A stretch of DNA of 43,449 bases, taken from sequence record OQ357823.1; one strand, 5' to 3'. Below, piece after piece: positions 5,016-40,543 of the stretch. Within the stretch, counting starts at the first letter, position 1, and each line of letters begins with the position of its first letter. This stretch comes from Escherichia phage CY1_Cui-2023. A model generated the notes under the pieces. That model was given only the letters and a program-made list of their open reading frames with translations, was not told where the DNA came from and ran no database searches. A program made the translations under genes and the position numbers.

Positions 5016-5683
5016 CTTCTTTCCAGCAACGGCTTAATGTCGATACCAAGTTTATTCTCGATCAATCCTGCCAGTGCGTCAGTCTTCTCTTTAAGAGCGA
5101 AACATTGTGCTTCATACCTAAACCTTGCTTCCATTTCATCGGAACGTGATACCCAAGACTGCCGAGCTTCACAAGCGAGAAGGTCAAGCTTCTCGTCAAT
5201 GTTCTTATCCATAAGGAGGATTTCATTGATTCGCTGCTCCGCAACGATTCGCTGGCCAAGGTGAGCGTTCTGCGCATTAGCCACACCAAGCATCACGCGC
5301 GCTTCTTTTAGCTCATCAATACTCACCATCTGGCTGATTACTTCCGTTTGTTTGTTGATGGTGGACTGCATCTCTTTAAGCTTATTAAGAACCGCACGGC
5401 GAACAGACTTTGACTCACGCATTCCAACAAGAAGCATCTGTTCCATATTAAGCACTGGTGAGTTGATTGACTTTCTATAACCCCCTCTCCTCTCACTTTT
5501 GATTACGAAACTTTCGTAGTCAAACTCAAACCCCTCAAGCTCATCCTCTATCCTCTCAACAAAGTCATTGTGCCGAACATCAGATTCACCGGCAACTAAC
5601 CTCGCTGGGTTGATAACTTCATTCAAAAACTGATAACTGTTCATTTTTACATCTTCATTTAGTAGAGTTAGGTTCATTTTCAT
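5000..5683 (-). CDS. Rha-family phage regulatory protein (putative)
   Basis: N-terminal segment LNEVINPARLVAGESDVRHNDFVERI matches the Rha-domain pattern; track ORF begins with TTG at 5710, first in-frame ATGs at 5683/5677; start uncertain. Confidence 0.5.
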   Translation of the reverse strand: MKMNLTLLNEDVKMNSYQFLNEVINPARLVAGESDVRHNDFVERIEDELEGFEFDYESFVIKSERRGGYRKSINSPVLNMEQMLLVGMRESKSVRRAVLNKLKEMQSTINKQTEVISQMVSIDELKEARVMLGVANAQNAHLGQRIVAEQRINEILLMDKNIDEKLDLLACEARQSWVSRSDEMEARFRYEAQCFALKEKTDALAGLIENKLGIDIKPLLERSSTNS

Positions 5684-5782
5684 CTCTCTTCTGGTTTTTT
5701 CATGGCTCAAATCTGAGCCATCACTTTGGTTCCCAGCCTGAAATTTAGGTTGGATGACAGCACCATTGCCGCCACGCGCCTA

Positions 5783-5825
5783 AATATACCTAAAGATAGC
5801 CAGTTGTCTTTAGCAAATCGTGCTA
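5783..5825 (-). promoter_or_regulatory. dyad-operator promoter (TAGCA-cgatt-TGCTA) with -10 TATATT, for the Rha-like gene
   Basis: Dyad 5811-5825 read on minus strand; TATATT exactly 30 bp downstream (5788-5783). Confidence 0.5.
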
Positions 5826-5854
5826 TTTATCGACAATTTCACCATAAATCACAG

Positions 5855-6020
5855 TTACACGTAACCGATGTAACTCGATGTATACAATCTCATCCGCGGG
5901 AAATGATATACTCGCTGTTACGCCAATTTACGCATTGGTTACATTAAAATATCTATATATATCAACCTTTTACTCTTATTATTATTATTATATATATTAC
6001 TGTGTATATCATGTAACTAC
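5855..6020. repeat. intergenic control region with GTAAC/GTTAC motif cluster plus (TA)n and (ATT)5 microsatellites
   Basis: GTTACACGTAACCGATGTAAC, GTTACGCC, GGTTAC at 5862-5945; (TA)4-5 at 5953-5961; TTATTATTATTATTA at 5977-5991; CATGTAAC at 6010-6017; lies between divergent genes. Confidence 0.6.
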
Positions 6021-6313
6021 TTCTATAGAGTGTTCCGGTTATAATTTTAATATCATGTGGATTTATACAGTATTGCGCGGCAGCTATACCAATGCACCCT
6101 CAGCGAGAAACGGCATACACGATATACACGATGTTTACATTGAGCTATGGCTGGCTTGAGATGCCAAAAAGCGTAACTAGTGCCAATGCCTACACGAAAT
6201 TACAAAGATTCACGCGTAAACTTAAATCAACGATTGGCAAAACCAATTGGACTGGTTACGGTGCTGAATATATAGTTACCTCATCGAAAGCAATCAACCA
6301 GAGAGATATATAA

Positions 6314-11236: not shown

Positions 11237-11719
11237 TCATTCAGATCTTTCTTTAGCTTTTCGTGCGGCTTCGTTGGCAATCTTATTCTTTCGCCATGGT
11301 CGACAGGGTGGCTTTGTTGCTAGTTCTGCATCGGTAACTACGCGAAGCATATGGCGCTTCTTGCATCGAAGTGTTAGCGGTTTTCCGTTTCCGTCGAATT
11401 GCAGGTCTGGTCGGCAGAATGTAGCTCGAAATCCCTCCTTATTTCGCTTGTACGCATTATGTGCTCGCTGAGCCCCTCGAGCCGAAATCATACCGCGGTT
11501 AAACCATTCCGATACAGCTTGGTTGGACACATTTAACTGCTTTGCGATGTTCGCCTTTGTACCGTAGAAATCAAGAACCATCTCCAGGCGAGCACGTAGC
11601 CCAGCCTTTACCTCATCTTTCAATACGTAGTAGCCTGATGGTCGTTTGCGTTGCTTTTTGTCTTTTGTGCGCACGGTTCCGTTATTGCCGTTAATAGTTC
11701 GCTTGTCGATTTCACACAT
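11237..11719 (-). CDS. putative HTH DNA-binding protein (Cro/YdaS-like), 160 aa
   Basis: Segment KQLNVSNQAVSEWFNRG resembles a helix-turn-helix recognition helix; basic N-terminus. Confidence 0.45.
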   Translation of the reverse strand: MCEIDKRTINGNNGTVRTKDKKQRKRPSGYYVLKDEVKAGLRARLEMVLDFYGTKANIAKQLNVSNQAVSEWFNRGMISARGAQRAHNAYKRNKEGFRATFCRPDLQFDGNGKPLTLRCKKRHMLRVVTDAELATKPPCRPWRKNKIANEAARKAKERSE

Positions 11720-11732
11720 CTCATTACCTCAA

Positions 11733-11774
11733 TAGCACTTTTTGTTAAACAATGGGTTCGATGGCTGTTATTAT
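11733..11774 (+). promoter_or_regulatory. dyad-operator promoter (TAGCA-ctttt-TGTTA) with -10 TATTAT, for helicase gene
   Basis: Dyad 11733-11747; -10-like hexamer 11769-11774. Confidence 0.5.
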
Positions 11775-19583: not shown

Positions 19584-21167
19584 TCACCCCAACAATCGCG
19601 GATTAATGTAAATCTTATCACCAATCAGGCATGTATAGTTTTTCTCATCAAGCATAGGAACCAAGTGGTCCTTGATGCGAGTCATTACGCCAGCCTGTCC
19701 TTCAAAAGGTTTAACTTTGCGTGCTGCTTCATACAGTGAGCGAACGCCAACAACACCCTTCCCATTCTTACCTTGCTTAATCAGGATATCAACCAGCTTA
19801 TTCATTTCAGCATTATCACCAGCATGACCAGCAGCACTAGCGGACGACAAATAAGTCTTGCTTAACTCGTGGAAAATCATAACCGCTTCTTGCATTGTTT
19901 CAAGCTCAATCTCTCTTGATTTCTGCGGACTCGACCCTGCCGGTGCGAACCAGTTGCGAATAACGTGCAATACTGAGGCAATACGGATTGCTTGCTTATC
20001 AAATTTACCAAGAGCACCACGTAACATCGTGTGGGAATATTTACCGCCATCACCAAGATGCGGTTCCATTTCCTGGCGAGCTCGGTTAAGGTAGCGCATG
20101 GATGACGCACTTACTGTCAGTTTCACTTCAACTTCATTCATAATTTCATGAACGAGACGGAAATAGTCTGCTTTAAGACCATCATCAATAGCCTCGTATG
20201 TTGAATCGCCATTCTCATCAACAAACACGCGGTCTCCAAGAAATGACTTTTCACGCACCAGAAGGAAACGCTCGGAAACACCAATACCACGCGCACCAGC
20301 ATTCATAATCGCATTGATTGTTTCATCCTGAGCAATTACAGAGATGCACCCCATTGCCACGAAACTCATGTTGTTTTCTGCGTTAGCGCGGGCAATAGAT
20401 ACGTTACCAGCATCCCACGCTTTAAGTACAAGCTCGCTGTTCGTTTTCTTGGAACCATCACCGTATGTCATGCCCAATAATGAGTTGACGCTTGTTGCCT
20501 CATCCGAGATGACCGCAAAGTTACCCTGGCGGTTGTTGATTCGTGCAAGACCTTCTGGCGTAGTATCTGAGACCGGGAATACGATATCGCACAGCTTCTC
20601 GAGCTTTTCCTCTAAATCTTCCTTCTCCTCAAACAGTGAAGCCATCTCAGATGGTGACTTCTCCTGTTTCATTTCTTTTGCTAGCGCAGACAGCTTAGCC
20701 ATAATCTTTTTGCGGTCACGTTTACGCACCTCGTTCAAACGCTCAGTCTCAGCAATCATTGGCGCAATTGACAGAGAGTTAATGGCTGACTTACCAGTAG
20801 ATGGCGGCTGGCTAGTTACCACGTAAAGCGATGTTGGCTGCTGGGTTCCGTGATACTCAACAGTAAAGCGCCCTAGCATCGCAGCGGACACACAACCCAA
20901 AAAGTGCATGTATGCTGATGACTCTGGGAACTGAACTGAGCGAGCAATATTTGCCGAGAGCTTACCAACAACATCAATGTCATTGCCTAGAGATATTACA
21001 GGGTACTTGTCATTACCTGCGTCAATCTCCACAGGTGTTTTCCAGAATGATTGAGACTGCCGATAGCCATTTGCATTAATGGCCACGCGAAGCGGTGGGA
21101 GGTTGTCGGTCGCGGCAATCGCCATAACTTGTTCAACAGATAGTTTATCTTCGTTGAAATCAAACAT
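19584..21167 (-). CDS. large P-loop-containing protein of unknown function (possibly DUF3987-like), 527 aa
   Basis: Long ORF with SD ACGGAGAG; deviant Walker A-like TSQPPSTGKS and Walker B-like AVISDEAT; N- and C-terminal segments are homologous to the 160-aa ORF at 23768-24250. Confidence 0.55.
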   Translation of the reverse strand: MFDFNEDKLSVEQVMAIAATDNLPPLRVAINANGYRQSQSFWKTPVEIDAGNDKYPVISLGNDIDVVGKLSANIARSVQFPESSAYMHFLGCVSAAMLGRFTVEYHGTQQPTSLYVVTSQPPSTGKSAINSLSIAPMIAETERLNEVRKRDRKKIMAKLSALAKEMKQEKSPSEMASLFEEKEDLEEKLEKLCDIVFPVSDTTPEGLARINNRQGNFAVISDEATSVNSLLGMTYGDGSKKTNSELVLKAWDAGNVSIARANAENNMSFVAMGCISVIAQDETINAIMNAGARGIGVSERFLLVREKSFLGDRVFVDENGDSTYEAIDDGLKADYFRLVHEIMNEVEVKLTVSASSMRYLNRARQEMEPHLGDGGKYSHTMLRGALGKFDKQAIRIASVLHVIRNWFAPAGSSPQKSREIELETMQEAVMIFHELSKTYLSSASAAGHAGDNAEMNKLVDILIKQGKNGKGVVGVRSLYEAARKVKPFEGQAGVMTRIKDHLVPMLDEKNYTCLIGDKIYINPRLLG

Positions 21168-22599: not shown

Positions 22600-22643
22600 A
22601 TTATGGTCCCGTCGCCAATGTTTGTCATTAGCAAAAAGTGCTA
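22600..22643 (-). promoter_or_regulatory. dyad-operator promoter (TAGCA-ctttt-TGCTA) with -10 CATAAT
   Basis: Dyad 22629-22643 on minus strand; CATAAT (reverse complement of 22600-22605); leader ATCAACAACGAGGAGAGAGAT before ATG 22572. Confidence 0.5.
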
Positions 22644-22660
22644 TTCGTTGGGTTTATGTA

Positions 22661-22757
22661 TTATTGCAGTTATTGCAATGATTCATCTCATTATTGCACA
22701 TATAGCAATATTGCATCTGATGCAATGATGTTTTTGATTGTTGCAGAATTTGCAATT
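22661..22757. repeat. array of at least 7 short TTGCA/TATTGCA iteron-like repeats
   Basis: TTATTGCA at 22661, 22670, 22691; ATATTGCA 22708; TGCAAT 22721; TTGCA 22741 and 22750; direct and inverted copies within about 100 bp. Confidence 0.6.
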
Positions 22758-22829
22758 ATTGATGTGATGGTGAATGAATGGTGGATGGACTACCATACAA
22801 GTTGATTTTTATTCTGGCCGAGCCATTTT

Positions 22830-23215
22830 GCCGCATACACGTAACCGGCGTAGCGCGATGTAAGCCAACCACTATCGTTACGCGAGTTACGCGAAGCTAC
22901 GCCTAGACTTACACTATAAGTACTTAATATATATATATATCTTCTTTCTATTATTATTATTATTATTATTATTATTGTATGTAAGTCATGTAACGGGTGT
23001 TCTTCTGCTATATATATGTTTTTTCCTATCAGAGTACATATCTGCAATTTTATGGAAGAAATAGCCAGTATTGGGCAACCCCACCCAATTTATGCGTTAC
23101 AGGCGTTACCACAAACTACATTTAGCTATAGCTTGGCTAGGATGCCATTTCGCGTAACCACACCTAAAAGTTACCAAAAATTACACTTGATTACGTGTGT
23201 AAGTCGATATATGAT
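22830..23215. repeat. AT-rich control region with CGTAAC/GTTACG clusters, (TA)7 and (ATT)9 microsatellites
   Basis: ACGTAACCGG, CGTTACGCGAGTTACGCGA at 22840-22890; (TA)7 22927-22940; (ATT)9 22950-22976; CATGTAAC 22988-22995; GCGTTACAGGCGTTACC, GCGTAACC, AGTTACC, ATTACGTG at 23093-23207. Confidence 0.6.
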
Positions 23216-23767: not shown

Positions 23768-24250
23768 ATGAATATCGCCAGGCAAGATGGACTTTCGCCA
23801 GTCAGAATCGTAATAAATGCAAATGGGTATCGTCAGTCAACGCCATTCTGGGGTTCGATTGATACGTCAGATGTGTACTCAGGTGATGAGCTTGGTGTGC
23901 TAATTAAAATCATCAGGAAGATGGGAGTTAACGGGAAAGGAGTGGTTGGTGTCAGGTCTGTATATGAAGGAGCTCGAAAGGTTAAGCCTTTTGTTGGGCG
24001 TAATGGAGTGATGTTGCTCATCAAGGACAAGCTAATCCCAGAGCTCGACAAGATGAATGTTACATGTCTAATTGGCGATAAGGTTTATGTTCACCCCGCA
24101 ATACTAAATGAGTGTTTGGAGCCTAACTTCAAGGTCTACGAAGGTAAGCATCCTAGTAGACTACCATACCACTTGCGGTACAGCGAGGAAGAGGTTGAGG
24201 CGGCGATGGAGTTTTATCGGGAAGCTAAATTACTCCTGAATGGACAATAG
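23768..24250 (+). CDS. mini-paralog of the 527-aa P-loop protein (N- plus C-terminal segments only); upstream in-frame ATG 23726 is cut off by an amber codon
   Basis: Residues align with the N-terminus (RVAINANGYRQS) and C-terminus (GKGVVGVRS..ARKVKPF...TCLIGDK.Y) of the 19584-21167 product; the reading frame is continuous from ATG 23726 except for TAG at 23759-23761. Confidence 0.45.
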   Translation: MNIARQDGLSPVRIVINANGYRQSTPFWGSIDTSDVYSGDELGVLIKIIRKMGVNGKGVVGVRSVYEGARKVKPFVGRNGVMLLIKDKLIPELDKMNVTCLIGDKVYVHPAILNECLEPNFKVYEGKHPSRLPYHLRYSEEEVEAAMEFYREAKLLLNGQ

Positions 24251-24290
24251 CACGAATTGCTAAACAATCGCCGGAGAAATCCGGCATAAT
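24248..24290 (+). promoter_or_regulatory. dyad-operator promoter (TAGCA-cgaat-TGCTA) with -10 CATAAT
   Basis: Dyad 24248-24262 begins in the TAG stop of the mini-paralog; hairpin CCGGAGAAATCCGG in spacer; -10 24285-24290; leader ATCGACAACACGATGG. Confidence 0.55.
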
Positions 24291-26298: not shown

Positions 26299-26823
26299 AT
26301 GAAAGACGAAAACTTCACCAGCCAGGCGCAAGAAAAGATTCGCTCTGGCAACTTCAAAGCCATGTACAACAAAAAGTATTCTGACATTACAACTCTGTCC
26401 AAAAACCGAATAATGACCCCAGAGCAGCTATTCGACCTGGCCGTGAAATACTTCTCATGGGCTGAGAGCCAGGCAATCAAGGCAATTGAGACAGCCAGCT
26501 TCCAGGGTGTCGTAACCGAGAATCTGGTGCACAAGCCACGAGTCTTCACACTAACAGGATTCTGCCTTTACTGCGGTGTTACCCATAGCGCAATAGAGAA
26601 ATGGAGGAAGTCGGCGGGTTATGACGAGGTAATTGCATTCATTGATTCCGTGATTCGCGAGCAGAAGTATCAGCTGGCAGCGTCTGGCATTGTTAACCCT
26701 GGCATGATTTCCAAAGAACTTGGCATCGATAAGCCGCAGGAGATTACTATAAGCAATAACTCTTCAGCTAACGACGTTGGCACGATGAAGGAAGCGCTGG
26801 AGTCTGTGATTAGTAAGCTGTAG
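26299..26823 (+). CDS. terS: terminase small subunit
   Basis: 174-aa ORF with strong SD AAAGGAGG, positioned immediately upstream of the HNH and large terminase genes. Confidence 0.6.
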   Translation: MKDENFTSQAQEKIRSGNFKAMYNKKYSDITTLSKNRIMTPEQLFDLAVKYFSWAESQAIKAIETASFQGVVTENLVHKPRVFTLTGFCLYCGVTHSAIEKWRKSAGYDEVIAFIDSVIREQKYQLAASGIVNPGMISKELGIDKPQEITISNNSSANDVGTMKEALESVISKL

Positions 26824-26891: not shown

Positions 26892-27398
26892 ATGAATTGG
26901 CATGATATTTTTGAATATAGAGACGGGCTTTTAATAAGAAAGGTAAAAGTAGCAAATGTATCAAAGGTTGGAGAGGTGGCCGGAAGAGTTGATAAATTTG
27001 GCTATGTGATACTAAAGTATAGACAAAAAGCATACAGGTGTCACAGGGTGGTGTGGGAGATGCACAATGGAGCAATCCCTAAAGGCATGTACATAGATCA
27101 CATAAACCAAAATAGAAGTGACAATAGAATAGAGAACTTAAGGTTAGTAAGCAATAAAGAGAACTCAAATAACAGATCACTATCATCAAGAAATAAAAGC
27201 GGAATAAACGGTGTAAGCTGGTGCAAAAGAGAGAATAGATGGCTTGTTCAGGCTAGAGAGTTTGGTAAAACAGTCTTCATATGCTACAAGGACACTATAG
27301 AGGAGGCTGCATTGGCAAGGTCGCAGTATGACAAATTGAACGGATATCATGAAAATCATGGCTCTGAAAATAAAGGCTACCTAAATACGAGAGCGTAA
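26892..27398 (+). CDS. HNH homing endonuclease with AP2-like DNA-binding domain
   Basis: HNH core (CHRVVWEMHNG...IDHINQNRSDNRIENLRLVSNKEN) followed by AP2-like segment (KSGINGVSW...W.A..F.....DTIEEA); inserted between terS and terL. Confidence 0.8.
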   Translation: MNWHDIFEYRDGLLIRKVKVANVSKVGEVAGRVDKFGYVILKYRQKAYRCHRVVWEMHNGAIPKGMYIDHINQNRSDNRIENLRLVSNKENSNNRSLSSRNKSGINGVSWCKRENRWLVQAREFGKTVFICYKDTIEEAALARSQYDKLNGYHENHGSENKGYLNTRA

Positions 27399-36620: not shown

Positions 36621-36869
36621 ATGAACAACGTTAAAAATATCATCAAACTTACTGCTGCTCTTGGTGCTTTCTACCTGGCAATTCAGATTGTCAACCCAAC
36701 TGGTGGCGCAACCGCAAACTCTGATGCAATAAAGTATGAACATGAATTTAATAGTGCATATTCGCATTGTGAAAAAGTAGCTGGCGATAAGACAAACCAG
36801 ATTCTGCACTATGGTCGCGAAGTGTGCACCGAAGTTGCTCACAACATTGTAAAAAACGAATCAAAGTAA
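36621..36869 (+). CDS. hypothetical small secreted protein, 82 aa
   Basis: N-terminal signal-peptide-like IIKLTAALGAFYLAIQIV; leader AACGAGAGAGAAAACAAA. Confidence 0.45.
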   Translation: MNNVKNIIKLTAALGAFYLAIQIVNPTGGATANSDAIKYEHEFNSAYSHCEKVAGDKTNQILHYGREVCTEVAHNIVKNESK

Positions 36870-37570: not shown

Positions 37571-40543
37571 ATGGCAACTAACGAAATTGCTGGTATCACG
37601 CTAGCCGTCGACGTCGCTCAGGTCGATAAGGGTACGCAATCATTACAGAAATTCAGGCAAGCAAACGAGCAAGCTGCAACGGGAATCAATAGCTTCATCA
37701 ACGCCGAGCTTGTAGCCAAGACTCAAGCAAGGGACACTGCAAGGCAGCTTGAGGAACAGCGCAAATCTTTCGCATCACTTCAGAAAGCCATAGACCCAAC
37801 TGCCGCTAAATTCCAGAAGTTGCAGAAGGCAGCAACTGAATTAGACAAAGCATTTGAATCTGGGATAGTTCCTGATGAAGAATTCTTCAGGCTTGGCTCT
37901 GTTATTGAAACTCAAATCAATAAGCTCAACAGGTCTAAAGCTGCTCTTAGCGAGGAAGGTCGGGCTGCACTCCAGGCATCAATAGACAAAGAAAAGGCAA
38001 CAGCAGCGGCGCAAAAGTTCATTCAATCTCTTGAGAACGAGGCGAATGCAGCAAGCCTTACAAGGACTGAACTGCTTCAGCTTAAGGCTGCTCAGCTAGG
38101 GGTTAGTGACCAAGCTGCGCCTATTATCGACAGGATTGGTAAGGCTGCCGAGGCATCTGCTGTTCAGTTGCAGAAGCAGAGTTCCGCTTTTCTTAAGTCA
38201 GGTTTAAGCGCCGGTCAGTACAAGCAAGCGATTCGCCAGCTACCCGCTCAGATTACAGATATCGGAACTTCCCTTGCTAGCGGCATGCCAGTCTGGCTTG
38301 TTGCAATCCAACAGGGTGGGCAGATTAAGGATAGTTTTGGCGGTATTGGAAATACAGCAAGGTTTGCACTGGCAGCCATTAACCCATTAACAGCAGTTGT
38401 TGGGACTCTAGGCCTGGCTCTTGGCGCTTTGGGTGTTGCGGCTTATCAGGCCGATAAGAATGCTCGAGGACTAGCATCTACGATAACGTTGGTTGGCAAC
38501 TCAACTATCACGTCTACAGCGCAGATAAATCAGGTTGTTGATGGAATTGAGAGATCAACACTAGCTACTCGCGGACTTATTCAGGAAATAGCCAATAGCC
38601 TTGTGGCAAACGGAAACCTAACTCTTACGCAGATAGACAAGATAACTAAGGCAACAGCGCAGTGGGCGGCAGTAACATCAACCGATTCAAAGACCATTCT
38701 CGGGTACTTTGACCAAATTACAAAAGACCCTGTTAAAGGCCTTGCTGAGCTTGATAAGCAATTTAACTTCCTTCAAAGTGGGCAGTTAAAACACATAGAG
38801 AACTTAAGGAAGACAGCGGGAGAGACTGAGGCTGTAACAGCAGCTACTGAGTTATTTGCTAACGTTATGGAAAACAGGCTAGAAGATGTTGCACTAAGCC
38901 TCAATCCGCTAGAAAGTGCATGGAATAGCTTCAGGAAGTTTGTAAGTAATATTTGGGATGATATCGGCAAAAGGACACTTGGTGCTCTTAACTTAATAAC
39001 TGACGTTGTTGCTGGGACGATTGAGCAGATAAGGTCGTTCATAAACTCAGGCGACATTCTTCTTGGTGAATTTGCTATCGCTGCAACCAAGACGCTTCAG
39101 TCAATCCCGGGACTTGGCGATTTAGGCAATGAAGCAATCGCTGAGCAGCAAAAGATTGTCGATGCTGCCAAGAAGCAAAACATTGAGTTAGCTAAAAGCA
39201 TAGCTGAGCGAGACGCGAGAATCAGGAAGGGTGAACTTGGTTATGTCGAGAGCAACAATAACACTAACCTGAGCGGGAATAATGCATCAACAGATAAGGA
39301 GTTCGGAGCAAGGAAGAAAGCGCTAGCAGACGAGCTTGATGCAATAAAGAAATCGAGGAGCGAGAGGAATAAGGCAGTAAAAGAAGAAATGGATTTAACT
39401 TTATCTTATGAATCTGGTGTTCTTGCACTTCAGGCTCAGTTAAAGGCTTTGCAAGAGCATAGGACGATAAATGATGTAATAAGTAACGAACGAAAGCAGC
39501 TATTCCAGGAAGAAGCTAAGTTTGCAATACTTGAACAAAGATATGCTGATGGTAGCCTGACTAAGTCTCAAGCCAAACTGCTAGCGCAGAAGGATATCAT
39601 TCTTGAGCAAGCTAAACAGAAGGCTGAACTTGGTGACCGAATCGTTCTTCAGGAGCGGTCAAACAAGTTACTTGATGACAACCTTAAGAAGACAATACAG
39701 ATTACCAATGAGGCGAAGAATGTTTCACTTGCTGCTGGTCTATCCGAAAGGGAGCGGCAAAGGGCAAGAGAACTTCAGGCGCTAGAGTCCAATCAGTTAA
39801 ACAAAGGTGGATCTGTAGATGATGTTGATTTCCAGAATCTGCTGGAAGCAAGAAAAGAATACTACAGGCAGGAAGATAACCTAAGGTCAGACTGGCAAGC
39901 TGGTGTAACTTCAACGCTTGCTGACTTAACTGAGAAGTACACTGACTTCAACCAAATTGCTAAGGATTTGACTGTCGCAGCTTTTGATGGAATTACCGAC
40001 CAGATTACAAACCTTGTAACCACTGGTGAGACTAATTTCAGGGAGTTCACGGTAAGCATCCTCAAAATGATTGCGAAGATTGCGACACAGCTTCTGATTG
40101 TTAAGGCTATTGAGTCAAGTTTGAGTAGCTTTGGTGGCACTGGCGGCGCAATTGGTTCAATTGGTAGTGCGCTTGGATTTGCTGGCGGCGGCTACACTGG
40201 TGACGGTGGGAAGTATCAACCTGCTGGAACGGTGCACAAAGGTGAATTTGTTTTCACCAAAGAAGCAACCAACAGGATTGGCGTTAAGAACCTGTACAAG
40301 CTGATGCGAGGTTATGCCAATGGTGGCGCTGTTGGTGGGCCTTCTGGCTATGCTAATGGTGGAGTTGTTGGCGGTACAAATGTTAATGTAAGCGGAATCA
40401 CTGTTAACGTGAATTCTGGAATCGGTGGCGGTAATGATGCTAAGGCGATAGAATCTGGAGTCAAGGTTATCGTGGCTGAGGAAATCAGCAAGTCATTCCA
40501 GCAGGGTGGCAGGGCCTTTGCTTTCTTGCGAGGTTATAATTAA
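37571..40543 (+). CDS. tail tape measure protein, 990 aa
   Basis: Very long Ala/Gln/Lys-rich helical ORF with C-terminal Gly-rich segment, located between chaperone and M/L/K/I genes. Confidence 0.85.
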   Translation: MATNEIAGITLAVDVAQVDKGTQSLQKFRQANEQAATGINSFINAELVAKTQARDTARQLEEQRKSFASLQKAIDPTAAKFQKLQKAATELDKAFESGIVPDEEFFRLGSVIETQINKLNRSKAALSEEGRAALQASIDKEKATAAAQKFIQSLENEANAASLTRTELLQLKAAQLGVSDQAAPIIDRIGKAAEASAVQLQKQSSAFLKSGLSAGQYKQAIRQLPAQITDIGTSLASGMPVWLVAIQQGGQIKDSFGGIGNTARFALAAINPLTAVVGTLGLALGALGVAAYQADKNARGLASTITLVGNSTITSTAQINQVVDGIERSTLATRGLIQEIANSLVANGNLTLTQIDKITKATAQWAAVTSTDSKTILGYFDQITKDPVKGLAELDKQFNFLQSGQLKHIENLRKTAGETEAVTAATELFANVMENRLEDVALSLNPLESAWNSFRKFVSNIWDDIGKRTLGALNLITDVVAGTIEQIRSFINSGDILLGEFAIAATKTLQSIPGLGDLGNEAIAEQQKIVDAAKKQNIELAKSIAERDARIRKGELGYVESNNNTNLSGNNASTDKEFGARKKALADELDAIKKSRSERNKAVKEEMDLTLSYESGVLALQAQLKALQEHRTINDVISNERKQLFQEEAKFAILEQRYADGSLTKSQAKLLAQKDIILEQAKQKAELGDRIVLQERSNKLLDDNLKKTIQITNEAKNVSLAAGLSERERQRARELQALESNQLNKGGSVDDVDFQNLLEARKEYYRQEDNLRSDWQAGVTSTLADLTEKYTDFNQIAKDLTVAAFDGITDQITNLVTTGETNFREFTVSILKMIAKIATQLLIVKAIESSLSSFGGTGGAIGSIGSALGFAGGGYTGDGGKYQPAGTVHKGEFVFTKEATNRIGVKNLYKLMRGYANGGAVGGPSGYANGGVVGGTNVNVSGITVNVNSGIGGGNDAKAIESGVKVIVAEEISKSFQQGGRAFAFLRGYN

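Follow-up and report, generated by a model that had tools for sequence, protein, structure and literature searches.

The window analysed here is the whole 43,449-nucleotide stretch of Escherichia phage CY1_Cui-2023 (OQ357823.1), which shares 99% identity with Escherichia phages TR2, TR3 and Rao1 and, judged by its sequence, is a T1-like siphophage of the Drexlerviridae, Braunvirinae. An array of TTGCA repeats sits inside a 675-bp intergenic gap between two divergent operons (Table 1), and a gap of about 680 bp is found at the same locus in each subfamily examined. The DUF3987 helicase gene, 1.5 kb to the left of the array, belongs to the operon that the array precedes. On the right, the second gene beyond the packaging region (23768-24250, plus strand) encodes a 160-aa protein (phrog_7327) with a domain of about 75 aa in common with the DUF3987 helicases of T1, KLPN1 and TLS; the domain is also found in the C-terminal part of helicase phrog_2373. 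Further along, an HNH endonuclease gene (26892-27398, plus strand) separates terS from terL; the sequences that match it best in T1, KLPN1 and TLS occupy unrelated genome positions, as is typical of a mobile homing endonuclease. GC skew across the window tracks gene orientation only.

Table 1. Features of the TTGCA array, its flanking region and its candidate readers in the window.
Feature	Position	Strand	Description
Site 1	22664..22678		TTGCAGTTATTGCAA; exact TTGCA-N5-TGCAA; half-sites invariant in nine phages
Site 1, extended palindrome	22660-22682		ATTATTGCA..TGCAATGAT
Site 2	22694..22708		TTGCACATATAGCAA; TTGCW-N5-WGCAA; A at position 11 kept in most relatives
Site 3	22711..22725		TTGCATCTGATGCAA; exact match; half-sites kept, inner N5 variable between phages
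Site 4	22741..22755		TTGCAGAATTTGCAA; exact match; relatives keep TTGC..GCAA, inner seven bases variable
Tandem 47-bp two-site unit	22662-22708 and 22709-22755		Direct repeat, 70% identity
C-free GAT-rich tract	22754..22789	+	AATTATTGATGTGATGGTGAATGAATGGTGGATGGA; between array and predicted packaging cut
Zone homologous to relatives' packaging starts	22785..22812	+	Packaging rightward; placed by homology to relatives
Leftward early promoter	22600..22644	-	-35 ATGACA 22623-22628, -10 CATAAT 22600-22605; promoter scan
Family-specific upstream element of leftward promoter	22628-22644	-	ATAGCACTTTTTGCTAA
Example copies of ATAGCACnnnTTGnTAA	22628-22644(-), 5810-5826(-), 11732-11748(+), 24247-24263(+)		
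Left operon	starts 22572	-	Small ORFs, then DUF3987 helicase (19584-21167)
Right operon	starts 23247	+	DUF7174, small early genes, tRNA (from the TR3 annotation), TerS (26299), TerL
Candidate reader, Cro-fold HTH protein, T1 ST23 family	11237..11719	-	160 aa; recognition helix VSNQAVSEW
Small terminase TerS, alternative reader	26299..26823	+	P22 gp3 family; 3.5 kb downstream of array

The first-pass annotation had reported at least seven TTGCA copies, direct and inverted, within about 100 bp, and both observations hold: nine pentamers are packed into the 92 bp from 22664 to 22755, six on the plus strand and three on the minus strand, where 0.3 would be expected from the 141 copies in the 43,449 bp of the whole window. 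The pentamer is not enriched in the genome as a whole (141 against 164 expected), so its enrichment at the array is local. A pattern search showed that the copies pair up as four palindromes of the form TTGCW-N5-WGCAA, with the half-sites of each 10 bp apart; the pentamers are therefore half-sites of four dyad-symmetric sites, and the mixture of direct and inverted copies is a by-product of this symmetry. The palindromes extend over 15-23 bp, following ATYATTGCW-N5-WGCAATRAT. Three of the four sites match TTGCA-N5-TGCAA exactly and there is no other exact match in the 43-kb window, while the relaxed form has a single extra match, at 39072. Markov simulations give an expectation of 0.57 relaxed sites per window and, with intergenic composition, 0.0009 per 100 bp, against four observed in 92 bp; two sites within 100 bp occurred in none of the simulations. 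The centres of successive sites are 30, 17 and 30 bp apart, and the four sites consist of a 47-bp two-site unit duplicated once.

Nothing suggests that this DNA is translated, as the earlier annotation had also concluded, since no reading frame is open throughout the array in nine related phages. A search of the array region against Rfam returned no match, and neither the IHF core consensus nor GATC (Dam) sites are present in that region. Nor did the array module match E. coli genomes or plasmids, so that hitch-hiking elements bearing it are unsupported.

Within the intergenic gap, the stretch that is conserved most widely is centred on the array. When nine phages of the Braunvirinae, Rogunavirinae and Nouzillyvirus are aligned, there is little or no change in the half-sites (ATYATTGCW...WGCAATRAT) or in the 30/17/30 spacing, while the inner five bases and the spacers between sites vary; at site 4 the relatives show a symmetric double change, TTGCC-N5-GGCAA. 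Because half-sites and spacing are kept while the inner spacers vary, we read this pattern as a putative protein footprint, bearing the signature of sequence-specific binding by a dimer. What can be stated plainly is that the array is a genome-unique, non-coding and conserved set of symmetric sites with a footprint-like pattern of conservation.

Conservation of the half-sites and their spacing takes in Braunvirinae, Rogunavirinae, Nouzillyvirus, T1, Webervirus and Changchunvirus, with differences in the number of sites. T1-type genomes carry one two-site unit (TTGCAYGGTGTGCAA and TTGCTnAGAWTGCAA, 30 bp apart), and the T1 genome has two TTGCW-N5-WGCAA sites in total, both at the locus adjacent to the packaging start (pac). 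Webervirus KLPN1 likewise has a single two-site unit, with TTTCA-N5-TGCAA twice, 29 bp apart, and Changchunvirus W011D has three sites. TLS lacks TTGCA-type sites genome-wide and has two copies of TAGACCGATTGGTCTA at the equivalent place, directly after the leftward promoter element; this replacement palindrome, AGACC-N4-GGTCT, occurs exactly twice in the TLS genome, both times at the equivalent locus. In each genome examined, the sites are confined to the pac-proximal locus. Conservation in related phages had been proposed as a check on the array, and loss of the repeats from related genomes as the outcome that would count against it; the sites are in fact kept across most of the family. T1 (48768-48788) and KLPN1 (48949-48968) have another unique palindrome, TATTCC-N8/9-GGAATA, between the leftward promoter element and the TTGCA sites, and TLS (49792-49820) has TAGACC-N4-GGTCTA twice together with the GATC-containing repeats TGATCG and TGATCA, which are reminiscent of the P1 pac hexamers; the window phage carries none of these.

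A scan of viral contigs for the two-site unit returned more than 120 matches, nearly all of them coding repeats in tail-fibre genes. The pattern ATTGCW-N5-WGCAAT at every 30 nt is common in the tail-fibre genes of unrelated phages, where it encodes a 10-residue I-A-x-x-A-I repeat, and it sets a trap for motif-based searches of the TTGCA element; because such repeats dominate its matches, the scan is unusable as a guide to distribution. A corresponding scan for the promoter element gave mostly chance matches or other promoter copies. Since the same 30-nt periodicity is so common elsewhere, the array might be a decayed and non-functional tail-fibre coding repeat, or else a set of sites for a host factor, but we regard this as very unlikely. 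A decayed repeat does not fit the lack of a conserved open frame, nor a conservation that peaks in the half-sites without codon-like periodicity, and neither idea explains why a position between promoter and pac is kept in six lineages. TLS, an E. coli phage without the sites, argues against an E. coli host factor, and no E. coli regulator is known to us to recognise such a consensus. Taken together, all readings beyond the three main ones discussed below have only a slim chance of being correct.

The position of the array acquires its significance from the packaging starts of related phages. In MSK, PhageTerm placed a forward headful start at 36,862 (p 1.6e-9; PMC8421802), which aligns to 22793 in the window, 38 bp to the right of site 4. 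The UDF157lw genome was re-organised to its PhageTerm terminus (PMC10838988) and its record begins 35 nt past its own site 4; the start of SU57 was picked from PhageTerm and a coverage step (PMC7718038), and its position 1 corresponds by alignment to about 22812; position 1 of the Rao1 record aligns to 22785. The T1 record, in which 1-2800 is annotated as a terminal repeat, opens with GTTGCATGGTGTGCAAC at the edge of its first palindrome. The starts of relatives other than MSK are record conventions backed by methods statements. As the packaging starts of relatives map 30-57 bp to its right, the array abuts pac, and by homology the first cut of the packaging series would fall in that interval, with packaging proceeding rightward. 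The array thus coincides, through its relatives, with the beginning of a packaging series, and within the genome it is unique or nearly so. The pac sequence of T1-like phages has been described as unidentified but located in this region (PMC7718038), and that of TLS, which packages from the equivalent region in spite of having no TTGCA sites, was placed by restriction mapping and a six-base resemblance to P22 pac (PMC11447400).

The GATG-rich repeats that the first reading had placed after the array are confirmed, forming the C-free tract of Table 1, and the predicted cut falls at the end of this tract or just beyond. In characterised pac sites (SPP1, P1, P22), recognition repeats are typically 30-60 bp from the first cut. 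The GAT-rich tract is the sole other feature in common with TLS, whose version spans about 85 nt; C-free runs of its length are common in the window, and it is notable for its position only. Just right of the predicted cut zone, GATTTTTATTCTG (22806-22818) was likened by eye to the P22 pac core, GATTTATCTG, but the likeness needs three inserted T's, is not conserved in Rogunavirus or T1 and is probably due to chance. T1 was reportedly found by Drexler, in 1984, to begin packaging lambda DNA in the P-Q interval. A scan of the lambda genome found no TTGCW-N5-WGCAA site at all, only weak PWM hits in the P-Q interval, and nothing that resembles the pac region of T1 or of the window in any of its parts; the lambda scan is uninformative and, if anything, speaks slightly against recognition through the motif alone.

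If the sites are bound by a protein, we need to ask which. The small proteins that neighbour the array have no recognisable DNA-binding domain, and phyletic profiling identified no window protein that is present in T1 and KLPN1 yet missing in TLS; the reader would therefore be a core protein or a host factor. The obvious candidate in a packaging context is the small terminase, TerS, which is a clear homologue of P22 gp3 (PF16677, E 4e-12; PDB 3P9A, E 4e-14) and so of pac/headful type. However, the second helix of its HTH (LTGFCLYCGVTHSAIEKWRK, aligned to P22 gp3) varies freely among phages that bear the sites, and the helix is alike in T1 (SEAAIIKWK), which has sites, and in TLS (SGTALAKWK) and Vc1 (STGIIQRWK), both of which have none. 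TerS is disfavoured because its HTH fails to co-vary with site type, and it is probably not the likeliest reader.

The better candidate is a small protein whose gene is found between primase and helicase in every genome examined. It has a sub-threshold match to the P22_Cro/YdaS HTH (PF14549 P22_Cro, E 1e-5) and a strong one to phrog_2856, 'transcriptional regulator' (E 1e-81), while the core of its AlphaFold (AF2) model (pLDDT 88) superposes on the Cro proteins of Xfaso-1, N15 and P22 with TM 0.63-0.71, the N15 Cro-operator complex among them. Its recognition helix opens with [S/T]-x-Q in all site-bearing lineages examined (SNQ in the window phage and T1; TPQ in Rtp, DTL, CEB_EC3a and Sd1; TRQ in Rogunavirus; SIQ in KLPN1; SCQ in W011D) and departs from this form in three genomes that have no TTGCA-type site anywhere, namely those of TLS (NLK), Vibrio phage Vc1 (CCV) and the outgroup AAM37 (PFS); this co-variation of helix and site amounts to two or three independent contrasts. 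More broadly, 73 of the 99 cluster representatives that could be parsed, and 72 of the 73 parsable viral loci, have [S/T]-x-Q. Other forms of the helix include [S/T]xA, [S/T]xG and xxK/R, such as SMG in contig IMGVR_UViG_2595698707_000001 and SFG in the P0018 lineage. We favour this Cro-fold protein as the candidate reader, with a confidence that is a little better than even. A ranking of proteins by divergence, TLS against W011D, does not discriminate, TerS and the Cro-fold protein both being unusually diverged. Among 80 related genomes there is none with an array within 10 kb of the Cro-fold gene. The N-terminal segment of the protein, DKRxINGNNGTxRxxDxxxR, is conserved more strongly than the HTH, and the C-terminal motif FCRPDLxFDxNGK is also conserved; both are found even in the homologue beside the primase of Dibbivirus AAM37, which suggests functions beyond simple operator binding.

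The first-pass annotation saw in this locus the classic layout of an origin, iterons next to an AT-rich region, and the (TA)7/(ATT)9 tract to which it referred, about 170 bp away, is present 169 bp further on, at 22926-22976. However, the segment 22836-23185 is paralogous to 5856-6204 (62% over 364 bp, E 3e-18) in a second divergent intergenic region, 5681-6313, which has the same promoter element (leftward ATAGCAC..TTG, 5810-5826), GTAAC/ACGC repeats and a (TA)n/(ATT)n tract of its own (5939-6001), and in which there is no TTGC-N7-GCAA site. As the paralogous region lacks both, the array and the GAT tract (approximately 22645-22830) together make up an additional cassette that is found at the pac-proximal locus alone. 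The second region also carries a conserved GAGCTATGGCTGGCTTGAGATGCCA block, in keeping with the modular build of the focal region. Direct and inverted repeats of GTAAC/GTTACGC type flank the AT-rich tract at 22840-22900 and 23095-23160 (CGTAACCGGCGTAGCG / CGTTACGCGAGTTACGCGAAGCTACGCC; GCGTTACAGGCGTTACC; TTCGCGTAAC), and T1 has analogous repeats at the same places (GATTACG / AAATTACGCC / CGATTAACA).

Of the proposed origin layout, then, one part stands, in that the four palindromes are several initiator-type repeats at one locus, and the remainder is weakened. The repeated sites are palindromes, not direct iterons of the plasmid type. Their flanks are 0.61 and 0.53 AT, with no adjacent AT-rich DNA-unwinding element, and the distant tract (0.93 AT), some 165-170 bp off, belongs to a separate module that is duplicated without TTGCA sites; the argument from iterons beside AT-rich DNA loses its force. 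An origin of lambda type could still be envisaged, in which the palindromes are initiator sites that assemble an 'O-some', the Cro-fold protein recruits helicase and primase, and the pac cut is a separate neighbour. In lambda, too, the origin has four dyad-symmetric iterons, at which dimers bind (lambda record features), and such a role would suit a reader encoded between primase and helicase, whose additional terminal motifs suggest partner interactions and which apparently has one target locus per genome, as an initiator might and a global regulator would not. The proximity of the array to the helicase operon agrees with this, and no origin has been identified so far in T1-like phages (PMC7718038, PMC11447400). 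Nevertheless, 11-14 kb separate the sites from the presumed initiator gene, which is not how lambda, P22 or plasmid systems are arranged; the protein, at 130-200 aa, is small, with a plain Cro fold at its core; T1 and Webervirus manage with two sites; and the constant adjacency to the packaging cut is left unexplained. On balance we consider an origin rather unlikely.

A third reading, and to us an improbable one, makes the array a purely transcriptional operator with no role in packaging or replication, through which the Cro-fold protein modulates the leftward early promoter (by activation, or by shut-off through looping or a roadblock) or insulates the divergent early units. The array begins 20 bp upstream of the upstream element of that promoter, occupying about -65 to -155 and remaining outside the transcript, and its architecture of two to four clustered dyad-symmetric sites, with half-sites of 5-6 bp 10 bp apart, is that of Cro/CI operators. 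The candidate reader matches Cro proteins in fold, up to and including an operator complex, and databases label it a transcriptional regulator. Yet the sites avoid all -35 and -10 elements, and neither a promoter scan nor a reading of both strands revealed a convincing promoter inside the array. The upstream element, ATAGCACnnnTTGnTAA, a promoter-associated repeat described for TLS, T1, Rtp and Rogue1 (PMC11447400), is present at 17 places in the window, where 1.5 would be expected, and is oriented with transcription at each; the other sixteen copies, including the paralogous leftward copy at 5810-5826, have no TTGCA-type sites beside them. There are no sites near the gene of the Cro-fold protein itself, and the hexamers of the leftward promoter (ATGACA-17-CATAAT) are already near-consensus. 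The earlier suggestion of a regulator landing pad or multi-site operator is upheld in its form, with four symmetric sites, footprint-like conservation and a plausible Cro-fold reader. The element ATAGCACnnnTTGnTAA itself holds an imperfect palindrome, TAGCA-N5-TGCTA, with the architecture of the array sites and one base different in each half-site.

The three main readings have in common a unique and conserved array of symmetric sites, putatively bound by protein and abutting pac, and to this extent the interpretation is well supported. Our own contention, advanced tentatively and with less than even confidence, is that the array is a pac-associated landing pad, forming the recognition side of the packaging-initiation region. 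Dimers of a phage DNA-binding protein, most likely the Cro-fold protein and less likely the small terminase of P22-gp3 type, would occupy the four sites as two pairs, shifted by 47 bp relative to each other and with 30 bp between the centres of the two sites in each. The nucleoprotein complex so formed, of about 100 bp, would mark the single place on the concatemer where terminase cuts first. That cut would fall 30-57 bp to the right, at or just past the C-free GAT-rich tract, and headful packaging would then run rightward through the early genes towards terS. We infer both the identity of the reader and the need for its binding before the cut.

This proposal draws on the uniqueness of the array, on a cassette restricted to the locus and on a position adjacent to the cut in all lineages, and is supported by a terminase of the pac/headful P22 gp3 type. 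The distance of 30-57 bp to the headful start mapped in relatives makes a role in packaging at least as likely as an origin of lambda type. Several observations tell against it: the TerS helix does not co-vary with the sites, and the favoured reader is a product of the replication module and not of the packaging module; dyad-symmetric sites are not expected for a ring-shaped TerS; TLS packages without the sites; and the lambda P-Q interval has no site. It may be that the Cro-fold protein of the replication module, and not TerS, picks the packaging start of the T1 family, or that one complex serves as both origin and pac landmark, but we think either a long shot.

As types of element, operator arrays, pac sites and iterons are all familiar; this specific array is not mentioned in the T1-family literature that we searched. 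T1 is one of the seven classic T phages, and its pac sequence and origin are undefined at the sequence level (PMC7718038, PMC11447400). The array provides a short, conserved and mutable element at a mapped packaging start, with a named candidate reader, and offers an experimental handle on pac/ori control in the T1 family. T1-like phages carry out generalised transduction, are notorious for contaminating laboratories and are often candidates for therapy, and knowledge of their pac determinant would assist the prediction and engineering of transduction and help hundreds of Drexlerviridae genomes to be oriented and compared consistently. Were it true that a Cro-fold protein from the replication module licenses packaging, the array would couple replication control to the first terminase cut, a logic of pac recognition unlike the paradigm of P22, SPP1 and P1 in which TerS reads pac.

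The structural features of the array have analogues in several well-characterised systems. With the Cro/CI operator clusters of lambda (OR1-3), P22 and N15 it shares symmetric sites of about 17 bp, half-sites one helical turn apart, clusters of two to four sites and, by prediction, a reader of the all-alpha Cro fold. The array differs in standing clear of promoter hexamers and in its spacing (30/17/30 against 23-24 bp in lambda); moreover, the window phage is virulent, and the putative reader, whose gene is 11 kb distant, has additional conserved segments at both termini. The lambda origin, with its four iterons, O protein and adjacent AT-rich region, is similar in having dyad-symmetric sites (here two to four) at one locus and a reader that, if our candidate is correct, comes from the replication module, but the array has no adjacent AT-rich unwinding element and its sites are not in or beside the presumed initiator gene.

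Among packaging sites, lambda cosB (R3-I1-R2-R1, bound by gpNu1 dimers and IHF) also comprises multiple elements, partly inverted, on one side of the nicking site, which are read by a dimeric HTH domain and organise the terminase, a likeness that would extend to our candidate reader. However, the window phage is a headful pac phage and not a cos phage, its array has no IHF core, and the candidate has a Cro fold where the reader of cosB has a winged helix of MerR/Nu1 type. The pac sites of SPP1 (pacL/pacR boxes, G1P), P1 (TGATCA/G hexamers) and P22 (gp3) differ from the array in their direct boxes or asymmetric 22-mer, where the array has dyad-symmetric repeats of 15-23 bp, and in lying within or beside terS, which the array precedes by 3.5-8.4 kb; the array has no GATC/Dam component, and the TerS HTH does not track the array sites. 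The resemblance to these systems lies in their organisation: each has a unique cis site with its first, sequence-directed cut within tens of bp, as predicted here, and several short repeats on one side of that cut with unidirectional packaging, and the window TerS is homologous to P22 gp3.
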